From the NCBI RefSeq assembly GCF_002954445.1, contig NZ_MQWA01000001.1, positions 1,988,733-2,052,732 on the forward strand: a stretch of DNA of 64,000 nt. Reading direction: 5' to 3'. Position numbers and translations under genes: made by a program. Below, piece after piece: positions 29,647-39,311 of the stretch. Position 1 is the first letter of the stretch; each line of letters begins with the position of its first letter. This DNA comes from Rubritalea profundi. GTDB taxonomy: Bacteria > Verrucomicrobiota > Verrucomicrobiia > Verrucomicrobiales > Akkermansiaceae. The notes beneath the pieces are model-generated. The model searched no databases, was not told the DNA's origin, and saw only the letters and a program-made list of their open reading frames with translations.

Positions 29647-30213
29647 ATGCGCGATATTGTTTACTTCGACCTCGAGACCCAAAAGAGCTTTTCTGCCGTA
29701 GGCGGTGCCAAAAATAAAGCAAAGATGGGGGTTTCAGTGGCCGTGACGTATTCGACTAAGTCCGAGCAATACTGCGTCTACGGTGAAGATCAAATGGATG
29801 CTCTCGTAGATCAATTGGTCCGTGCTGATCTGGTCGTTGGCTGGAATCATATCCAGTTCGACTATCCCGTCCTCCAAGGCTACACAATTTATGATCTAGC
29901 GGCGCAGACGGTGAACCTCGACATGATGCAATATCTGGAAGCTGAAGATAAGTTAGGCTTCAGGTTGAAGTTAGACTCAGCAGCTAAAGTGAGCCTAGGA
30001 ATGGGCAAGACAGCAGACGGTTTAGACGCCCTCAAGTGGTGGAATGCCTACAAGAAGACTGGCGACGAATCCTACATGATGAAGATTGCCGAGTACTGTT
30101 GCTTTGACGTCAAAGTTACCAAGTGCGTTCACGAATACGGAATCGAGCACGGCGCAGTGCGCTACGAAGATAAGGGGGGGAACCCTGCAGAGGTTGCCGT
30201 CGACTGGAAGTAA
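29647..30213 (+). CDS. RNase H-like superfamily DEDDy-type 3'-5' exonuclease-like protein
   Basis: 188 aa. Exo I-like VYFDLETQ, Exo II-like VGWNHIQFDYPVL, Exo III-like YCCFDVKVT (Y-x3-D). Confidence 0.5.
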   Translation: MRDIVYFDLETQKSFSAVGGAKNKAKMGVSVAVTYSTKSEQYCVYGEDQMDALVDQLVRADLVVGWNHIQFDYPVLQGYTIYDLAAQTVNLDMMQYLEAEDKLGFRLKLDSAAKVSLGMGKTADGLDALKWWNAYKKTGDESYMMKIAEYCCFDVKVTKCVHEYGIEHGAVRYEDKGGNPAEVAVDWK

Positions 30214-30263: not shown

Positions 30264-30935
30264 ATGGCGGAATCTGCTAGAATTTCATCTAGTGTTTTCG
30301 TCGTGAAAGAACTCTTCGAACTCTCATTAAATCCCTGGGTATTACCATTTACAATACTGTTAGCTTTATGCTGCCTCTATTGGTTGTTGGCCTTGTTGGG
30401 CACTGTGGACATGGACTTCATTGAATTTGATTTCGACTCAGATACGGATTTTGATGGAGATGTTGGAAATTCAGGCGGTCTACTTACAAGCTTCCTGAAA
30501 CTGGTAAATGCTACCGATGTGCCATTCATGTTGGTGTTAAGTGTCGTGTCGTTGTGTAAGTGGCTCATCAACATCGCAGCCATACTGTACTGGAACTCTG
30601 ATGGGCTCGTATGGCTGGGGTTGGCAACATGGGTCATCGGCTTTTTTGTGAGCTGCCTTATAGCAGCAGTTCTCACAAAGCCGCTGGTGCCAGTGTTTAA
30701 GGCATTTCGTGCAGGAGAAGATGATGAAGAACCCATCCTAGGGCAATCCGCTACCGTTGTAACATCCCATCTAACTGAAAAATTTGGGCAAGTGCGTGTG
30801 TTACGCGAAAAAGGGGCAACGGCATTGGTCAATAGTAGATTGGCCAGTGGCCAGCCCGTACTCAAAAAAGGTGACATCGTCACGATTATCAGCAGAGACG
30901 AGAAAGATGGCGTCTACATTTGCACACAAATTTAA
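30264..30935 (+). CDS. NfeD/YqiJ-like membrane protein with C-terminal OB-fold beta-barrel
   Basis: 223 aa. Several TM helices, an acidic loop (DFDSDTDFDGD), then a soluble beta-rich tail (GQSATVVTSHLTEKFGQVRVLREKGATALVNSRL...GDIVTIISRDEKDGVYIC). Sits immediately upstream of the flotillin gene, as in yqiJ-yqiK pairs. Confidence 0.6.
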   Translation: MAESARISSSVFVVKELFELSLNPWVLPFTILLALCCLYWLLALLGTVDMDFIEFDFDSDTDFDGDVGNSGGLLTSFLKLVNATDVPFMLVLSVVSLCKWLINIAAILYWNSDGLVWLGLATWVIGFFVSCLIAAVLTKPLVPVFKAFRAGEDDEEPILGQSATVVTSHLTEKFGQVRVLREKGATALVNSRLASGQPVLKKGDIVTIISRDEKDGVYICTQI

Positions 30936-30958
30936 AACAAAAATAAGAACATACTATA

Positions 30959-33043
30959 ATGATAGATACACTGACAAATATAGGGACAATGCATTACTTG
31001 GCATTCGATTTCAGCACTCTACTTGGTGGGGGAGCCATATTCATAGTAGTCCTCGCCGTAGTCGTTTTATGGGTGTTTGCTAACTGTTTCCGTAAAATAG
31101 AAAAAGGCACAGCATTGATTCGTACAGGAATTGGAGAGACTAAAGTAACCTTCACAGGGATGATGGTTTTTCCCGTTGTCCACCGCGCGGAACACATGGA
31201 TATCTCATTGAAGCGCATTGAGATCGACCGGACAGGGAAGAATGGATTGATCTGTAAGGACAACATGCGTGCAGACATCAAGGTTGCGTTCTTCGTTCGT
31301 GTGAACAACGTGAAGGAGGAGGTCATCCGTGTGGCTGAGGCCATCGGCTGTGACCGAGCTTCTTCTGAAACTGAAATTCGTGTGCTTTTTGATGCGAAGT
31401 TTTCCGAAGCACTCAAGACTGTGGGTAAACAGTTTGATTTCATTCAGCTCTACGAAGAGCGTGACACATTCCGTGAAGAAATTCTTAAATGCATCGGTAC
31501 TGATCTCAACGGGTTCGTGCTCGATGATGCTGCGATCGATTACCTAGAGCAAACTCCGATTGAGTCGCTCGACCCTGATAACATTCTTGATGCTGAAGGT
31601 ATTAAGAAAATTACTGAGCTTACAGCAAATCAAGCAAAGCTCTCTAACAATATCCAACGCGATAAAGAAAAAGTCATTAAGCAGCAGGACGTGGAAGCGA
31701 GAGAAGCTATCCTCGAGCTTGAACGTCAACTCGCTGAGACTGAAGCTAAACAGCAACGCGAAGTGCAAGTTGCACAATTCCGTGAGCAAGCAGCATCAGA
31801 TCAGGTGCGTGAAGAAGAGAATCAGAAAGCCGAGCGTGCTCGCATTTCTTCAGAAGAAGAAATTCAAGTCGCTGAAGAGAACAAGCAACGTCAGGTGCTC
31901 GTAGCATTGCGCAATAAAGAGCGTACTGATGCTGTCGAAATTGAGCGTGTCATACGTGAACGTGACCTCGAGATTATCGAGCGCGAGCGTGTCACTGAAC
32001 TCAAATCGATCGAGAAAGAGAAGTTTGTAGAGATCGAGAAGAAGAACATCCAAGAGGTCATCAAAGACCGCGTGGCTCTAGAGAAGACAGTGGTTATCGA
32101 GCAAGAGAAGATCAAGGATACAGAAGCCTTTGCTGGAGCAGACCGTCACAAGCAAGTGACTGTTACTAACGCTGAAGCAGATGCAGCGGATCGACTCATC
32201 CGTGAAGTGAAGGAAGCGGAAGCTCGTAAAGAGGCTGCCATTCTCAAGGCCGACGAAGAAGCCTATGAAGTTCAGAAGTCTGCTGAAGCTAGCAAGCTAG
32301 CGAGTGAGATGAAAGCTGAAGAGCGCATTATCACAGCTGAAGCGGCACTCACAGCATCTGAGAAAGAGGCAAGTGCTAAGAAGATGCTCGCTGAGGCTGT
32401 GACCAAGGAAACTTCTGCTGAAGGCCTCGGCCAGGTAGAGGTGAAGCTTGCAGATGCAGAAGCTCTCAAGCAGCAAGGTGCGGCACAGGCTGAAGTAGAC
32501 GCTCTCAGCTTCGCCGCAGAAGCGAAGGGTATCGAGCAGAAAGCTGCTGCGATGAAGCTCTTTGAAGAAGCTGGTCAGGACCACGAAGAGTTCAAGCTCG
32601 AGCTTGATAAGCAGAAGATCATCGAACTTGCCGAGATCGATGTCCAACGCCAGGTAGCAGAGCAGCAAGCTGTGGTTATCGGTGAAGCTCTCAAGCAGGC
32701 TAAGATCGACATCGTCGGTGGTGATTCAGCATTCTTTGACCAGATCACCAGTGCGGTGACGAAGGGCAAAGTCGCTGACCGCATCGTCAATAACTCTAAG
32801 GTTATTACAGACGTGAAGGAGACATTCTTCAATGGTGACCCAGAATACTTCAAGAGTCAGATCAGTAGCTGGATTGAGCAATTCGGTATCGAAACTGAAG
32901 ACGTCAAGAACCTAACCGTCAGTGCATTGTTAGGGAAGATGATCCCACAAGCCGACGGTGAAACCCGCGGAAAGCTAGTCGGGCTCCTAGGAGCAGCAGA
33001 ACGCTTCGGCCTCACCAACTCACCAGCCTCAAAATTCCTCTAA
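30959..33043 (+). CDS. Flotillin-like SPFH/Band-7 domain protein (YqiK-like) with a long E/A/K-rich coiled coil
   Basis: 694 aa. N-terminal TM helix, SPFH domain (TFTGMMVFPVVHRAEHMDISLKRIEI...), then about 350 aa of heptad-like EA-rich repeats. Confidence 0.8.
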   Translation: MIDTLTNIGTMHYLAFDFSTLLGGGAIFIVVLAVVVLWVFANCFRKIEKGTALIRTGIGETKVTFTGMMVFPVVHRAEHMDISLKRIEIDRTGKNGLICKDNMRADIKVAFFVRVNNVKEEVIRVAEAIGCDRASSETEIRVLFDAKFSEALKTVGKQFDFIQLYEERDTFREEILKCIGTDLNGFVLDDAAIDYLEQTPIESLDPDNILDAEGIKKITELTANQAKLSNNIQRDKEKVIKQQDVEAREAILELERQLAETEAKQQREVQVAQFREQAASDQVREEENQKAERARISSEEEIQVAEENKQRQVLVALRNKERTDAVEIERVIRERDLEIIERERVTELKSIEKEKFVEIEKKNIQEVIKDRVALEKTVVIEQEKIKDTEAFAGADRHKQVTVTNAEADAADRLIREVKEAEARKEAAILKADEEAYEVQKSAEASKLASEMKAEERIITAEAALTASEKEASAKKMLAEAVTKETSAEGLGQVEVKLADAEALKQQGAAQAEVDALSFAAEAKGIEQKAAAMKLFEEAGQDHEEFKLELDKQKIIELAEIDVQRQVAEQQAVVIGEALKQAKIDIVGGDSAFFDQITSAVTKGKVADRIVNNSKVITDVKETFFNGDPEYFKSQISSWIEQFGIETEDVKNLTVSALLGKMIPQADGETRGKLVGLLGAAERFGLTNSPASKFL

Positions 33044-33097
33044 GTAGAGGAAATAGGAGAACCACAGACTACACGGAAAACACAGAAAGCCTGCTAA

Positions 33098-33472
33098 ATG
33101 GAATTTTTATATAAAGATGAAAGTTACGCAGTCCTAAGTGCAGTTTTCGAAGTGTATAAAGACAAGGGCTGTGGTTTTCTTGAGGCTGTATATCAAGAGT
33201 GTTTGGAGATCGAGCTGAGGGATCAAAAAATCCCTGCGGTTTCCAAACCTAAACTTGAATTAGAGTATAAAGGGCACCGCCTTCGCAAAATGTATGAGCC
33301 GGATCTGATCTGCTACGGCAAAATTATATTGGAGCTAAAGGCATGTAAATCGATTGACTCCGCCCACATCGCCCAACTTCACAATTATCTTAAAGCTACG
33401 GGTATGAGAGTGGGTTACGTGATTAACTTTGGGAGTTATCCCAAAGCGTCTTTCCAAAGAGTAATCGTATAA
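33098..33472 (+). CDS. GxxExxY family protein (PD-(D/E)xK nuclease-like fold)
   Basis: 124 aa. Contains the family pattern ...VLSAVFEVYKDKGCGFLEAVYQECLEIEL...YEPDLICYGKIILELKA. Confidence 0.7.
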   Translation: MEFLYKDESYAVLSAVFEVYKDKGCGFLEAVYQECLEIELRDQKIPAVSKPKLELEYKGHRLRKMYEPDLICYGKIILELKACKSIDSAHIAQLHNYLKATGMRVGYVINFGSYPKASFQRVIV

Positions 33473-33488
33473 ATTTCAAAAGCTTTCC

Positions 33489-36400
33489 GTGGATTCTGTG
33501 TGGTCTGTGGTTAAAAAAAAGATGTCAGAAGATAATAAACAGTTAGAAGGTGGAGCTTACGAAGTGATTCGGGCTCGCTTGGAGAAGCAGTCGGTCGAAC
33601 TTCGTTCACGCTTGGATGCGTTGAACGTGGAGCGGAAGGAAATCTTTGGTGCCGTCGAGTCGTCCCTTGTGTCGACCGAGCGTGTCACCACTGAGCACAA
33701 CTGCGTGCCGCGAGATCTCATAGCGATCGGTAAAAATCGCTTCCTATTCGGATACAATATCCAATTTGGACTGAAGCAGACTACAGATCTCGCAGATGTC
33801 TTTGCTGTCTATCAATACGACCCATCTGATCATAGTTTTACTAAACTATCTATCGATGAGGTAATCGACGATAGCGAGTTTGCGACTGATTTCGCCTACC
33901 TTTACAAGTACTACAAGCAAACGATCTTTGCGAAGTTCATGCACATCGGACCGAATGTGTATATCGCATTACGCGTCGGCAAGGACATCACAGACGTAAA
34001 GACCTTCAAGTTTGTCATCAATGGTGACGGCTCGCTGAAGTATATGGGCAACCGTTTTGATTACGAATACGTTTTCCCTGATCAACATGGCTTTAGCTGG
34101 GTGCGGGTAAATCGCGACATGCACCGCGGTGGTGAGCATCCGCATATTTCTATCGAAGATAAAGTTTTCGTGGAAACTGTGGGAGGTGACCTAACAGTTA
34201 AAATCGAAGATAATACAGCGGATGGCAAAGGTATCTATGCGGAGGAGGTAGTCGACCAGGACCAAACCCTCGATGACGCGGAGATTTCCTATGCGATTGT
34301 TGGGCCGCTTATCATTCTTAAAATTCTTCCTTACCGTGAGAAGAACTACCGTTACCTCGTTTTCAATGAGAAGAACCAATCGGTTGACAGGATCGATGCG
34401 ATTGGTGAGTCCTGTGTGTTGCTGCCAGAAGACCATGGCATCATCTTTGCCAATGGTTACTACCTGCTCAGTGGCGAACTCAAGACATTCGATCATGGAC
34501 TTGAGCATATGCGTTTCGAGCGCAAGATTTCCTCAGCCAATGGTGAGGACACACTCTTTGCGTTCTACAATCGTACCAGCGGTGACTACGCCTTACTCAA
34601 CTACAACTTAATCGAGCAAACCGTAGAAACTCCAGTGGTCTGTAATGGCTACTCGGTCTTCGACAATGGTGAGCTGATCTATTTTAAGACCGAGGACGAG
34701 GCGCAGAAGCACCACACCCTCCAAGTCTGGCAAACTCCCATTCTCTCTGCAGATGCCGTCGCATCGCAAGAGTTGGATAAAGGAAGTTATCTCTATAAAA
34801 TTGGTAATGCCGAGCTGGTTTCCGCAATGGCGGAGAGTAAAGAACTTCTGACGCTGTTAGATAAAGAAGATAACTATGCCGGTCTCTATATCGACCTAGT
34901 GAAGCAAGCGACAGTCTTGCTGGATAGTTATTTCTGGATCTCTAATGAGGCGACCAAGAATCTCGCCGAACCACTTGAAGGAATCCAACAAGCGGCGAAT
35001 AGTGCGATTGAAGAATTTGAGAAAGTTCAACGTCTGAGGAAGAATTCGGCGGAACGAATCAAGGATGTCGCTGCGCGCTGCGAGCGTCTATTACGCGATG
35101 CCGAGCACAGTCCACCAGACGACATTGTCGGTTTTGTGAAGCAACTTGCTGGCCTACGCACCATCCGTGGTGAAGTCATTGGGCTGCGCGAAATGCGCTA
35201 CATGGATCTCGCTCGGGTAGAGGAACTAGAGCAGGGGATTATTGCAGCCACTGAGATTGTCTCAGGAAAGACGGTGAGCTTCCTACTTCTCCCCGAGGCG
35301 CTCGATCCCTACAGAGCGCGTGTTGGTGAGCAACGCAAAATTCTAGCATCCCTCACAAAGGTGACTGAGGCCGATGACCTAGGTGAAGAAATTTCTGATG
35401 CGGGCAAAGAGCTAGAGATGTTGATCGATGTGGTGTCCAACCTCAAGATCGAGGATTCCACTCAGACCACTGCTATCATCGAAAGTATCTCGGCTATCTA
35501 TTCCACGCTCAATGGAGTCAAAGCTGAGCTTAAAAATAAGCGTAAAGAGCTCTCGCGCTCCGAGGGTGTTGCCCAGTTTGGGGCGCAGATGAATCTTCTT
35601 AGCCAGGCAGTGGTCAACTACCTTGACCTTTGCGATACCGCTGAAAAGACCGACGGTTACCTCACCAAGGTGATGGTGCAGATCGAAGAGCTTGAAGGAC
35701 GTTTCGCCGAGTTCGATGAATATGTAGAGGAACTCACGACCAAACGTGAAGAAGTCTACAATGCTTTTGATGGACGCAAGCAACAGCTGCTAGAAGTTAA
35801 GAGTAAACGCGCTAACAGGTTGATAAAGTCGGCTGAGCGCATCCTCAGCGGAATTTCGAACAGAGCTTCTGGGTTTAAAGAAATCAACGAGATCAATGGC
35901 TACTTCGCTGGCGATCTGATGATCGAGAAGGTTCGTGATATCATCGACGAGCTCATCGATCTCGGAGATAGTGTTAAAGGCGATGACATTCAGACTCGTC
36001 TTAAGACAGTCCGTGAAGATGCAGTCCGAGCTCTCAAGGATCGCAATGAACTCTACGTCGATGGTAAAGATGTCATCCAGTTCGGTAAAAATAAATTCAA
36101 CGTAAACACTCAGGAACTAGAGCTGACGGTGTTGCCACAGGATGGGGTGATGAATTTCCACCTCAGTGGTACGGATTTCTTTGAGGAAATTTGCGATCCA
36201 GAATTTCTCGCGACAAAAGATGTCTGGAACCAAGAAGTCATTTCTGAAAACAAAGCAGTCTACCGAGCTGAATACTTAGTGAAGCAACTTCTCGATTCAG
36301 ATCGAGGGCGAGAGCTGGCTAAGCAACCAGAGAGCTGGGTCGCCGACTTGTTACTGCAAACCGTGCAAGAATTCATGCAGCCTCGCTATGCGGAGAGCTA

Positions 36401-38639
36401 TACCAAAGGTGTGCATGATAACGATGCAGCTAGGCTGTTAGCTGCTATTTTACCGATCCACACCGGGATTGGTCTGCTGCGCTTCGATGCGCGCGATCGA
36501 GCACTAGCGATGCTTTTCTGGATTGCTTGGGAAGGTGAGAACAAGGAATTGCTCGCGGGTAAAATCCGGGCTCACGCCAAGCGCAGAGAAATATTTGGGA
36601 TCAATCAGGATGAACAACACGCCTTGGTCAACGAACTCGTCGGCCAGTTAAATACTTGGTCTGGGGTGACTCTAGTTGCTGAGGCTAGAGCTGAAGACGC
36701 AGCTGCTTACCTGTTTGAAGAACTTTCAAATGGTGAGGCCTTTGTTGTCTCTCCCGAAGCTGCGGAGCTAGTGAAGAAATTCAAGCACAGCCTCACCGTT
36801 AAGCACGCAGAGAAGTCCTATGAGGAAACTTTACTAGCTGATGCTGTGGCTAATTACCAAATCAACCAGGACTGGTTAGCTGGCTTCCTGTCGAATAGTC
36901 AGGAGCAGGATGACGCAGGAACTGTCGTTGCTAAATCAGTAGTAGCAGAGGCTGCAGCTCATCTCACTCGGGGAGGCTTTGACCAGCGCGATGTGAAAAA
37001 CGTGCGCGTCTCAGCTGAGGTTTCTGGAATGATTGGTGACCACAAGGTCATTTCTAACGGAGCCTACCAGCTGGATTACAATCAATTCTCCGAGCGCTTA
37101 TCATTGTTCGAGCGAGAGGTCGCCCCCACCTTTGCTTCGTATCAAAAACTCAAGCAAGAGCTAGTGGAGGAAAAGCGTCAGACGATGCGTCTCGATGAGT
37201 TCAAGCCGAAGGTGATGAGCTCGTTTGTTCGCAACAAACTTCTCAATAACGTATTCCTTCCATTGGTCGGAGACAATCTGGCCAAGCAAATAGGAACAGC
37301 CGGCAAGGACACCCGTACCGACCGCATGGGCTTGCTCTTGCTTATCTCACCTCCAGGTTATGGTAAAACAACCCTGATGGAGTACGTGGCGAACAGACTG
37401 GGGCTGACCTTCATGAAGATCAATGGTCCAGCATTGGGCCACAATGTGGTCTCGCTCGATCCATCTGAAGCTCCTAACGCCACCGCTGCAGAAGAAGTGA
37501 AGAAGCTCAACTTGGCTTTGGAGATGGGAGACAATGTCATGATTTACCTCGATGACATCCAGCACACACATTCTGAGTTTTTGCAAAAATTCATCTCACT
37601 CTGTGATGGTCAACGTAAGATCGAAGGAGTCTACAAGGGCGTTGCTAGAACCTACGACCTTCGTGGTAAGAAAGTCGCTGTCGTGATGGCGGGTAACCCA
37701 TACACCGAGACTGGTGGTAAGTTCCAGATCCCTGACATGTTAGCGAACCGTGCCGACACCTATAACCTAGGTGACATCATCGGCGGTCATGCCGAAGACT
37801 TCAAAGGTTCCTACATCGAGAACTCGCTCACTTCTAACACCATCTTGAGTAAGCTCTCTAGTAGAAGCCAGAAGGACGTCTACGCCGTCATGCAGATTGC
37901 CCGTACTGACAGCCAAGAAGGTGTCGACTTCGAGGGCAACTACACACCAGAGGAGATCGGTGAGATGGTGCGCGTGACCAAGCACCTCTATAGGGTACGA
38001 GATTCTATTCTCCGTGTGAATCTCGAGTACATACGCTCGGCTGCGCAGGAAGACGCCTATCGTACTGAGCCAGCATTCAAGCTCCAAGGGTCCTACCGAA
38101 ACATGAACCGCATCGCCGAAAAGGTATTGCCGCTGATGACTGAGAAGGAGGTCGAGGGGCTAGTGGTCGATCACTACGAGAACGAATCTCAGACACTCAC
38201 TAAGGGAGCAGAATCTAACATCCTAAAGTTCCGTGAAATGGAGAATCTCCTCACTGAGGAGGAGACCGAAAGATGGGATGATATAAAGAAAGGCTTTTCT
38301 AAGAACCTCTTGTTAGGAGCTGCTGGTGGTGACAACGATCCGGTCGCCAGAATCGTAGCTCAGCTCACTCAGTTCAACGATGGACTCGACTCTATCAAGG
38401 ACGGCATTGTCCAAGCCTCGACCCACTACGCCGAGCCACAAAGCCTTGGAGAAACTACGATTAGCCATCTAGAAAAAATCATCGCCGGCCTCCGTGCTGT
38501 GCCAGTCGAGGTCGACATCAAAATCGTCCCCGTCGAAGACGTCGATGGAGATGGCCAAAACGATGGTAAGATCTCGGGCATCGAAAAGAGCAAGAAATCT
38601 CCAATAGATATCCAGCCTGAAGTCCGGCAAGGCGAGTGA
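33489..38639 (+). CDS. Giant (1716 aa) uncharacterised protein with a single C-terminal RarA/clamp-loader-like AAA+ ATPase module
   Basis: Uninterrupted 5.15-kb ORF. Walker A is LLLISPPGYGKTTLMEY (nt ~37340-37390). Walker B/sensor is VMIYLDDIQHTHSEF (nt ~37540-37585), followed by AVVMAGNPYTE (compare RarA TTENPYF). The upstream ~1280 aa has no assignable domain, with beta-rich N-terminal ~450 aa followed by a long helical, coiled-coil-like middle. Confidence 0.7.
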   Translation: MDSVWSVVKKKMSEDNKQLEGGAYEVIRARLEKQSVELRSRLDALNVERKEIFGAVESSLVSTERVTTEHNCVPRDLIAIGKNRFLFGYNIQFGLKQTTDLADVFAVYQYDPSDHSFTKLSIDEVIDDSEFATDFAYLYKYYKQTIFAKFMHIGPNVYIALRVGKDITDVKTFKFVINGDGSLKYMGNRFDYEYVFPDQHGFSWVRVNRDMHRGGEHPHISIEDKVFVETVGGDLTVKIEDNTADGKGIYAEEVVDQDQTLDDAEISYAIVGPLIILKILPYREKNYRYLVFNEKNQSVDRIDAIGESCVLLPEDHGIIFANGYYLLSGELKTFDHGLEHMRFERKISSANGEDTLFAFYNRTSGDYALLNYNLIEQTVETPVVCNGYSVFDNGELIYFKTEDEAQKHHTLQVWQTPILSADAVASQELDKGSYLYKIGNAELVSAMAESKELLTLLDKEDNYAGLYIDLVKQATVLLDSYFWISNEATKNLAEPLEGIQQAANSAIEEFEKVQRLRKNSAERIKDVAARCERLLRDAEHSPPDDIVGFVKQLAGLRTIRGEVIGLREMRYMDLARVEELEQGIIAATEIVSGKTVSFLLLPEALDPYRARVGEQRKILASLTKVTEADDLGEEISDAGKELEMLIDVVSNLKIEDSTQTTAIIESISAIYSTLNGVKAELKNKRKELSRSEGVAQFGAQMNLLSQAVVNYLDLCDTAEKTDGYLTKVMVQIEELEGRFAEFDEYVEELTTKREEVYNAFDGRKQQLLEVKSKRANRLIKSAERILSGISNRASGFKEINEINGYFAGDLMIEKVRDIIDELIDLGDSVKGDDIQTRLKTVREDAVRALKDRNELYVDGKDVIQFGKNKFNVNTQELELTVLPQDGVMNFHLSGTDFFEEICDPEFLATKDVWNQEVISENKAVYRAEYLVKQLLDSDRGRELAKQPESWVADLLLQTVQEFMQPRYAESYTKGVHDNDAARLLAAILPIHTGIGLLRFDARDRALAMLFWIAWEGENKELLAGKIRAHAKRREIFGINQDEQHALVNELVGQLNTWSGVTLVAEARAEDAAAYLFEELSNGEAFVVSPEAAELVKKFKHSLTVKHAEKSYEETLLADAVANYQINQDWLAGFLSNSQEQDDAGTVVAKSVVAEAAAHLTRGGFDQRDVKNVRVSAEVSGMIGDHKVISNGAYQLDYNQFSERLSLFEREVAPTFASYQKLKQELVEEKRQTMRLDEFKPKVMSSFVRNKLLNNVFLPLVGDNLAKQIGTAGKDTRTDRMGLLLLISPPGYGKTTLMEYVANRLGLTFMKINGPALGHNVVSLDPSEAPNATAAEEVKKLNLALEMGDNVMIYLDDIQHTHSEFLQKFISLCDGQRKIEGVYKGVARTYDLRGKKVAVVMAGNPYTETGGKFQIPDMLANRADTYNLGDIIGGHAEDFKGSYIENSLTSNTILSKLSSRSQKDVYAVMQIARTDSQEGVDFEGNYTPEEIGEMVRVTKHLYRVRDSILRVNLEYIRSAAQEDAYRTEPAFKLQGSYRNMNRIAEKVLPLMTEKEVEGLVVDHYENESQTLTKGAESNILKFREMENLLTEEETERWDDIKKGFSKNLLLGAAGGDNDPVARIVAQLTQFNDGLDSIKDGIVQASTHYAEPQSLGETTISHLEKIIAGLRAVPVEVDIKIVPVEDVDGDGQNDGKISGIEKSKKSPIDIQPEVRQGE

Positions 38640-38805
38640 TCTACGTCAGCATGCTGATGAACTGCACCATACCAGCTAGACGTGCGATTCTTTATCGAGT
38701 CATTTTTGCACGTTACAGGGTGGGATTAGACATTTACGGGGTGACGCGGTCACCACTCAAATCAATACTCGGGCGATATCTCCATGTAGTCAGATTTATA
38801 CTCGT

Positions 38806-39225
38806 CCCTCACACTACACGACAAAAATTTAAGTACTGGATTCTACAATCAATGTGATCGCTCAGTGTGATCGCTCAGTGTGACAAAACCTTGGAGTGCT
38901 GAGGCTTGACGCAGCTCTGGTGAGGCTGTGGCTTGACACATGGGTAGGAGGTTTTCGGCTTTCCGTGTTCAGTGTTCCGACCGATAGGGTGAAGCCTGTT
39001 GCTGATTGTGTGGTCTGAGAGTTAGGGGAGTGGTTATATTCTGGGTGGTCCTGCCACCGCGCGCGTCAAGCCGCCCCAGCCACAGAGCTGTGTCAAGCCC
39101 CAGCACTCCAAGGGAGAAAGTGTTATTGACTCTGGTATGATGAACTTTGATGCATCAGATACCCATTTTGATAATTTTGAGAAATTCTGGTAATTCTGTA
39201 TGAAAAATTGTCGTGTAGTGTGAGC
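38806..39225. repeat. About 420-bp element with nested inverted repeats (MITE-like or structured ncRNA) in the 670-bp intergenic gap
   Basis: Outer 17-bp perfect inverted repeat: ctcacactacacgacaa (38807-38823) against ttgtcgtgtagtgtgag (39209-39225). Inner imperfect ~50-bp inverted repeat: ccttggagtgctgaggcttgacgcagctctggtgaggctgtggcttgacac (38889-38939) against gcgtcaagccgccccagccacagagctgtgtcaagccccagcactccaagg (39063-39113). There is also a 13-bp tandem duplication gtgatcgctcagt x2 (38863-38888). Confidence 0.45.
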
Positions 39226-39311
39226 GTCGACACGAAATCCCCCATTAAGTTTTACGATGGGCAGCAGCCCGCCCCAGTTACCCGTACGTTCGTTTGTTAG
39301 GGCTAAATAAC

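Follow-up and report, generated by a model that had tools for sequence, protein, structure and literature searches.

A flotillin, a YqiJ-like protein and a giant AAA+ protein encoded by a recurrent three-gene locus in Rubritalea profundi and other bacteria

In Rubritalea profundi (Verrucomicrobiota), the genes of a small membrane protein, a flotillin, a nuclease-fold protein and a giant ATPase follow one another closely on one strand, which raises the question of whether they form a single system and, if so, of what kind. They lie in a stretch of 64,000 nucleotides (nt) of contig NZ_MQWA01000001.1 (positions 1,988,733 to 2,052,732), hereafter the window, and an earlier note on this DNA had proposed them as a candidate undescribed membrane-associated system. 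We found that three of the four genes, those of the YqiJ-like protein, the flotillin and the giant AAA+ protein, are co-inherited in one order and on one strand in at least 10 phyla, while the nuclease-fold gene is a lineage-specific insert, a passenger and not a core component. The locus belongs to an operon class already on record from computational work, of which it is a verrucomicrobial, abbreviated member invaded by a GxxExxY gene. As for its function, we somewhat favour the view that the trio is a widespread membrane module which would act in membrane maintenance or envelope stress by remodelling a scaffold.

The four open reading frames (ORFs) are co-directional and are arranged as described earlier, with gaps of 23, 54 and 16 nt:

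30264-30935, plus strand: YqiJ/YuaF-type NfeD-like membrane protein of 223 amino acids (aa), identified from the ORF, its hydrophobic segments and a profile comparison with Escherichia coli YqiJ
30959-33043, plus strand: YqiK-like flotillin of 694 aa, with a membrane anchor (residues 21-39), an SPFH domain, a long coiled coil and a conserved C-terminal domain
33098-33472, plus strand: GxxExxY/PDDEXK_3 protein of 124 aa (PF13366, TIGR04256), accessory and inserted between the flotillin gene and the giant gene
33489-38639, plus strand: giant soluble AAA+ protein, of 1716 aa from GTG 33489 and probably of 1705 aa from ATG 33522

The start of the giant gene is most likely ATG 33522 (MSEDNKQ...) rather than GTG 33489, because both the homologue consensus and the R. 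profundi protein in NCBI (100% identical, 1705 aa, annotated as "DNA repair ATPase") begin with MSEDNKQ. The 1716 aa and the 16-nt last gap reported earlier are thus correct for the GTG ORF, and the likelier start would leave 49 nt between the GxxExxY gene and the giant gene.

Linkage of the three genes across genomes

In order to see how far the arrangement extends, one genome per species (GTDB) was scanned with an alignment of the conserved AAA+ region of the giant protein, which was chosen as the probe; the alignment of its propeller region had no stretch that was conserved enough. More than 584 relatives were found, from which the 80 best loci were taken with flanks of 10 kb, and their six-frame ORFs were searched with the window proteins. 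These 80 loci span Verrucomicrobiota, Planctomycetota, Bacteroidota, Desulfobacterota, Myxococcota, Hydrogenedentes and one Moduliflexus metagenome-assembled genome (MAG).

When the count was limited to loci in which 2.5 kb or more of DNA precedes the giant gene (n = 61, all in other genomes), the flotillin gene was found immediately 5′ of the giant gene and on the same strand in 59 of them, with a spacer of at most 150 nt in 37 of these 59. The YqiJ-like gene was just 5′ of the flotillin gene in 51 of the 58 assessable loci, and the seven loci without it were also negative with a hidden Markov model of the family. The pairwise identities of the flotillin and of the giant protein are correlated (r = 0.71, 49 loci), and a clustering of all neighbouring ORFs at the 80 loci gave no further conserved neighbour. 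A tblastn search of plasmid records brought the family to light in Pseudomonas fluorescens pQBR103, Streptomyces, Deinococcus, Vibrio, Proteus, Halomonas, Hymenobacter and Nonomuraea, and the same three-gene order was present in all six further loci inspected (Pseudomonas pQBR103, Vibrio, Proteus, Halomonas, Streptomyces and Deinococcus). The coupling of a flotillin/NfeD pair to a giant ATPase, which the earlier note had put forward from this one locus, is therefore real; the idea that giant homologues might never occur beside SPFH or NfeD genes clearly fails, since 59 of the 61 homologous loci have a flotillin gene directly upstream, and the giant protein is a member of no characterised family.

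Three giant homologues, at loci L025, L073 and L081, had neither a flotillin nor a YqiJ-like gene in the fetched DNA, which included about 6 kb upstream. The one at L073 adjoins Uma2 endonuclease-like and TonB_C genes, the one at L081 adjoins a divergent gene for a DEAD-box helicase of 1517 aa, and an additional giant-like fragment is found at the contig edge of L025.

The three proteins of the module

The family alignment of the flotillin matched E. coli YqiK in hhalign with 99.9% probability (E 7e-35, 365 columns, 31% identity), residues 27-405 of the flotillin being aligned with YqiK 16-385, i.e. over the SPFH domain and the coiled coil. Its homologues carry the names flotillin family or YqiK in NCBI and JGI. 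By these comparisons the 694-aa protein is a divergent and elongated YqiK-type flotillin, so that the SPFH/flotillin assignment of the earlier note stands despite the lack of any Pfam match: not even at E ≤ 10 did a Pfam model, Band_7 (PF01145) included, recognise the window protein, and none of 120 flotillin homologues had a precomputed Pfam domain. We read this missing Band_7 match as a gap in the sensitivity of the model and not as evidence against homology. There is a single N-terminal hydrophobic segment, the anchor, and it is followed by a positively charged stretch, from which the positive-inside rule predicts that the bulk of the flotillin is on the cytoplasmic side.

The product of the first gene contains three hydrophobic segments (residues 26-44, 84-108 and 118-136) and ends in a soluble domain of about 85 aa. 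A family profile built from 14 positional orthologues matched E. coli YqiJ over nearly its full length (hhalign 95.6%, E 1e-8), and this bears out its description as a YqiJ/NfeD-like membrane protein, although Pfam YqiJ_N scored the window protein below threshold (18.2 bits versus a cutoff of 23). The top profile match in the PDB was a weak one to the soluble domain of YuaF (2k14, E 0.17), and an OB fold of the C-terminal domain, which had also been claimed, is weakly suggested. Residues 45-70 (30396-30473), after the first transmembrane segment, form an acidic loop of D-x-D-x-D repeats, the length of which varies from 0 to more than 40 residues among 14 aligned homologues and is greatest in some Planctomycetota, Bacteroidota and Myxococcota; such a D-rich loop might bind cations.

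Since the profile comparisons match both YqiJ and YqiK, the two genes are homologous to a yqiJ-yqiK-type pair. In E. coli yqiJ-yqiK, as in Bacillus subtilis yuaF-yuaG (floT), an NfeD-like gene with three transmembrane segments lies immediately 5′ of the flotillin gene, as it does here. Both pairs were placed in the SPFH2 group by Hinderhofer et al. 2009 (PMC2636767). However, they lack a giant ATPase gene, and the window flotillin exceeds YqiK (553 aa) by about 140 aa and is undetectable with Band_7.

The giant protein can be divided into three regions:

33597-34934, plus strand: DUF3686 region (residues 37-482), an N-terminal coiled coil and then a domain rich in beta strands, probably a beta-propeller
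34956-36908, plus strand: helical middle region (about residues 490-1140), with long helices, a beta unit (878-900) and a motif-bearing helical domain
37206-38288, plus strand: AAA+ module and lid (about residues 1240-1600), identified from invariant motifs, an AlphaFold2 (AF2) model and Foldseek

Pfam recognised DUF3686 (37-482, E 4e-181), DUF7902 (603-687) and one AAA module, and no hydrophobic segments were detected in the giant protein, which aligns end to end and collinearly with 17 diverse homologues. An AF2 model of residues 1-1200 (mean confidence, pLDDT, 67.7) comprises a coiled coil (18-62), a beta-rich part (74-385) and about 360 residues of helices (490-850). The beta-rich part has about 20 strands in about 300 residues at a pLDDT of 30-60, while the helical middle region reaches about 80. 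All Foldseek matches of this model were weak, and all were beta-propeller or propeller-plus-helical proteins (clathrin N-terminal domain, DCAF1 WD40, IFT-A), so the beta-rich domain is probably a propeller, an assignment of low confidence. In the helical domain a motif K-G-V-H-D-x-D-A (973-981) is invariant among the 17 aligned homologues. An HD-phosphohydrolase was considered on account of this motif and rejected, as a second conserved His upstream is absent and there is no Pfam match. One homologue is named "phage shock protein A" in JGI; homology to PspA/ESCRT-III within the helical part was likewise discarded (hhalign probability 0.3%).

With its propeller and the roughly 650 residues of helices behind it, the giant protein could suggest a machine for vesiculation, in which it would coat flotillin patches in the manner of a protocoatomer and the coat would be recycled by the AAA+ module. 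For the 1-1200 model Foldseek did rank IFT-A subunits (8fgw_A, E 1.8e-4) and the N-terminal propeller of clathrin best, and a flotillin is the genetic partner. However, the TM-scores are very low (0.06-0.09, query-normalised), the propeller region is the poorly modelled one, and the helical part resembles long coiled-coil hairpins and not a solenoid. The family is also common in bacteria with no known endomembranes (Vibrio, Proteus, Streptomyces), and we regard a coat as very improbable.

The AAA+ module carries a Walker A motif SPPGYGKTT (K1293), a Walker B motif DDIQH (D1355-D1356), sensor-1 N1403, R1421 and the motif QGSYRNM (R1537), with a beta-hairpin (1376-1391) between Walker B and sensor 1. 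The segments PPGYGKTT, YLDDIQH, AGN, LANR and QGSYRNM do not vary among 14-17 diverse homologues, at identities down to about 28%, and this invariance of the Walker, sensor and arginine residues argues for the giant protein being an active ATPase. The AF2 model of residues 1150-1716 (pLDDT 66, core about 80) has an AAA+ fold, which Foldseek matched to RuvB, MoxR-type NorQ/CbbQ, MCM, spastin and ClpA with similar E-values (about 1e-5 to 1e-6) and a probability of 1.00. Sequence searches matched the N-terminal half of classical AAA proteins (p97, Rix7). The earlier reading of a RarA-type module is not upheld: the RarA model NF009883 of NCBIfam gave 15.9 bits over 37 residues against a cutoff of 668, and the top fold matches are to RuvB, MoxR-type proteins and MCM, not to RarA/RFC. 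The best structural matches, MoxR-type (NorQ/CbbQ) proteins and RuvB, have in common with the module the beta-hairpin between Walker B and sensor 1. The sequence likeness to RuvB is marginal (RuvB models, 20-23 bits versus cutoffs of about 280-300) and, unlike MoxR and RuvB, the giant protein has no VWA partner and no RuvA/RuvC context, and its size and architecture are entirely different.

Accessory genes at the locus

The identity of the 124-aa protein as a GxxExxY (PD-(D/E)xK-like) protein was confirmed, both curated models being far above their cutoffs (PF13366, E 2.5e-39, 134.7 bits versus 22; TIGR04256, E 1.8e-37, 128.3 bits versus 35) and the motifs being intact (G26..E29..Y32, P68-D69 and E79-x-K81). 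Its inclusion in the system, on the other hand, did not survive the comparison of loci. A GxxExxY gene is found in the spacer between the flotillin and giant genes at five of the 80 loci (Rubritalea, Haloferula, two verrucomicrobial MAGs and one Phycisphaera), and in other genomes this place is taken by IS200-like Y1 transposases (two loci), a 23S-rRNA-IVS four-helix protein, DMP19 with DUF3997, a SHOCT protein, a lipoprotein or unknown ORFs. GxxExxY proteins form a very large family, and homologues 60-66% identical to the window protein occur in Zetaproteobacteria, Methylomonas, Leptospiraceae and Pirellulales, an identity between phyla that far exceeds that of the flanking operon proteins. 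Of three such homologues that were located, two are within type I restriction-modification (R-M) operons, between hsdM/RhuM/Fic genes and hsdR, and one is beside a sulfatase gene.

The spacer itself (window 33044-33488; L012 5744-6193; L026 5662-6186; L060 5757-6236; L017 5904-6308; L022 4934-6020; L037 4937-6103) appears as a slot in which small, mostly selfish-looking genes of varied families have landed repeatedly in different phyla, and the GxxExxY homologues between the genes of type I R-M operons (L086-L089) are placed likewise.

Upstream of the trio, the domain matches of the neighbouring products (ComEC, an FtsX/MacB_PCD permease, a GYF_2 plus RDD protein and an RNase_H_2-superfamily protein) agree with the comEC, lolE-like, DUF4339-RDD and exonuclease-like genes listed before. 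The RNase_H_2 gene (PF13482; window 29647-30213; L001 15223-15789; L002 2546-3115) is directly 5′ of the trio in two species of Rubritalea and directly 3′ of the giant gene in Haloferula; it has thus remained with the module across a rearrangement within Verrucomicrobiaceae and is absent from all other loci, i.e. it is lineage-specific.

These neighbours, together with the database names, bring up a role in DNA repair or nucleic-acid processing, in which the giant ATPase would move on or remodel DNA at the membrane with the help of the GxxExxY protein and the RNase_H_2-like exonuclease. Pfam describes DUF3686 as "ATPase involved in DNA repair", NCBI uses "DNA repair ATPase", RuvB ranks first among the fold matches of the AAA+ module, RuvB_N is matched weakly, the two nuclease-like genes are adjacent in Rubritalea and Haloferula, and comEC is upstream. 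However, NorQ/CbbQ, MCM, spastin and ClpA match the module as well as RuvB does, so that the likeness is one of the generic AAA+ fold, the searches of the giant protein revealed neither a DNA-binding nor a nuclease domain, and the adjacency of the GxxExxY and RNase_H_2 genes is confined to close relatives (five and two of the 80 loci, respectively), whereas the sole conserved partners are membrane proteins. We consider such a role quite unlikely. The label "DNA repair ATPase", carried by thousands of database entries of this family, is without support, and the name probably derives from similarity in the coiled coil or the P-loop.

A second proposal that would give the GxxExxY protein a part is that of an anti-phage or conflict system, where the flotillin/NfeD pair would sense a membrane perturbed by infection and the giant ATPase, possibly with the nuclease-fold protein, would carry out abortive infection or an attack on nucleic acids. 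A patchy distribution that includes megaplasmids (pQBR103 and plasmids of Streptomyces and Deinococcus), the gathering of small mobile or selfish genes in the operon, the presence of GxxExxY homologues in type I R-M operons and the Uma2 endonuclease-like gene next to one flotillin-less giant homologue would all fit with it. However, a search of PADLOC-DB v2 gave no matches for the flotillin and the YqiJ-like protein and only P-loop-level ones for the giant protein (E about 1e-3), none of which is significant, the GxxExxY protein having a partial match to PDC-M36A (E 3.7e-5), and we did not find a homologue among 2.9 million viral contigs. The neighbours vary among the 80 loci and are no defence genes, no conserved effector domain (nuclease, protease, TIR or pore) is present, the GxxExxY gene is missing from 75 of the 80 loci, and in Verrucomicrobiales the module is kept in local synteny at 60-87% identity, much like a housekeeping operon. 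A conflict system is unlikely on this evidence. The earlier note had suggested a membrane-scaffolded nucleic-acid-processing or defence/stress machine; its nucleic-acid and defence parts find no meaningful PADLOC match, no viral homologue and no conserved nuclease or DNA-binding partner, and are left without support, while its stress part is favoured by the gene neighbourhood discussed below.

Scans for promoters and terminators gave nothing beyond the expectation from shuffled sequence, and there were no Rfam matches at 28-40 kb of the window. The 670 nt 3′ of the giant gene (38640-39311) contain no ORFs and hold nested inverted repeats, with an outer pair of 32 nt (38793-38824 and 39208-39239, 81% complementary) that encloses an inner pair of 49 nt (38889-38937 and 39065-39113, 82% complementary). 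The sequence of the arms at 38793-39239 occurs once in the window and has no Rfam match; it could be a remnant resembling a miniature inverted-repeat transposable element or a structured element.

A recorded operon class and its probable role

In regards to novelty, the claim of an undescribed system has to be withdrawn. Ravi et al. 2024 (mSystems, PMC11237479) reported an operon that joins a CesT/Tir-PspA dyad with a flotillin, an ATPase and a protein with three transmembrane segments of the YqiJ/YuaF prototype, as well as widely distributed abbreviated operons with the flotillin and the YqiJ/YuaF protein and sometimes the ATPase. One row of their Table S3 (ANH61663.1, Dokdonia donghaensis) reads YqiJ-YuaF, then Band-7 plus coiled coil plus flotillin, then beta-propeller plus coiled coil plus AAA-ATPase. 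The three proteins, their order and their direction are the same as in our locus, and the architecture of the giant protein (coiled coil, beta-rich part, helices, AAA+) agrees, with the propeller at low confidence. The dyad, which characterises their full form, is lacking here, and an extra GxxExxY gene lies between the flotillin and the ATPase. Searches with phmmer found no PspA or CesT homologue in the window, and the locus therefore corresponds to the abbreviated form. With the window giant protein as the probe we recovered the full form (a divergent HTH-S24 repressor, and CesT_Tir_1 followed by PspA and the trio) in seven Bacteroidota loci, and thus the families are the same as those of Ravi et al. 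Since the operon class is already in that study, the locus is no new kind of system. The authors made a similar proposal, of a chaperone/membrane-dynamics role, giving neither linkage statistics nor experiment, and remarked on a PLD hydrolase in some proteobacterial operons.

The genes that accompany the trio elsewhere have a common theme. In pQBR103 a PspA/IM30-DUF2491-DUF350-DUF1190 cluster is directly upstream, in Vibrio the genes directly 3′ of the giant gene code for a PLDc_2 (PLD-like) protein and TelA, in Proteus a LemA gene is beside the trio, and in Streptomyces a TerD gene is near it. These neighbours (PspA, TelA, TerD, LemA and PLD), recurrent and not universal, point to remodelling of membranes under stress.

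At the Vibrio campbellii locus (L092, 11849-13627), the PLD-like gene encodes a single HKD motif and begins 1 nt past the stop of the giant gene, with telA next; it is in agreement with the PLD-hydrolase remark of Ravi et al. 2024 (PMC11237479).

The mechanism that we favour for the membrane module would run as follows. The flotillin would oligomerise into a scaffold at the inner membrane, on its cytoplasmic face, and would be partnered within the membrane by the YqiJ-like protein. The giant protein would dock on this scaffold by its coiled-coil, propeller or helical part and oligomerise through the AAA+ module, and its hydrolysis of ATP could then drive the assembly, disassembly or reshaping of the scaffold or of client proteins. 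In this way the module would serve membrane maintenance or an envelope-stress response. PspA/IM30-type proteins, the genes of which adjoin it in some lineages or are found elsewhere in the genome, would probably take part as well.

The pairing of an SPFH scaffold with an AAA+ ATPase has known parallels in HflK/C with FtsH and in prohibitin with the m-AAA protease, where an SPFH cage works with an AAA+ machine, and the analogy is a mechanistic one. FtsH belongs to the classical AAA clade and is a protease anchored in the membrane. The giant protein, in contrast, is soluble and lacks a protease domain, and its N-terminal portion of about 1,240 aa is unrelated, so that homology between them is limited to the AAA+ fold. 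As for remodelling by AAA+ proteins, Vps4 acts on ESCRT-III and PspF binds PspA. A more specific version of our proposal, which we put forward tentatively as possible rather than likely, is that the giant DUF3686 protein is a dedicated ATP-driven factor for the assembly or disassembly of flotillin scaffolds, comparable to Vps4 for ESCRT-III.

Several points weigh against a scaffold-remodelling module. Gene linkage is the only ground for a physical contact between the giant protein and the flotillin. The Walker B motif reads DD instead of DE, and no clear aromatic pore-loop motif is apparent in the sequence from Walker A to Walker B, which makes classical polypeptide threading uncertain. The structure models are moderate (pLDDT 66-68) and the propeller assignment is weak, and the absence of PspA from the window counts on the same side. 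In the searchable literature DUF3686 is not mentioned, "DNA repair ATPase" is nowhere paired with flotillin and no paper besides that of Ravi et al. mentions this ATPase, no experimental study was found, and a search for pQBR103 with SPFH returned nothing.

Domain-based surveys of SPFH proteins will overlook an entire subfamily of flotillins, since the Pfam Band_7/SPFH models miss it. The role of bacterial flotillins is still an open question, and an AAA+ protein encoded beside the flotillin gene in about 97% of the examined loci, in at least 10 phyla, is the best pointer that genomes offer to a mechanistic partner; the partnership of the giant protein with the flotillin is directly testable. 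If the comparison with Vps4 were true, the giant protein would be the first AAA+ machine that is dedicated to an SPFH protein and is not a protease, and the flotillin microdomains of these bacteria would be actively turned over upon membrane stress.

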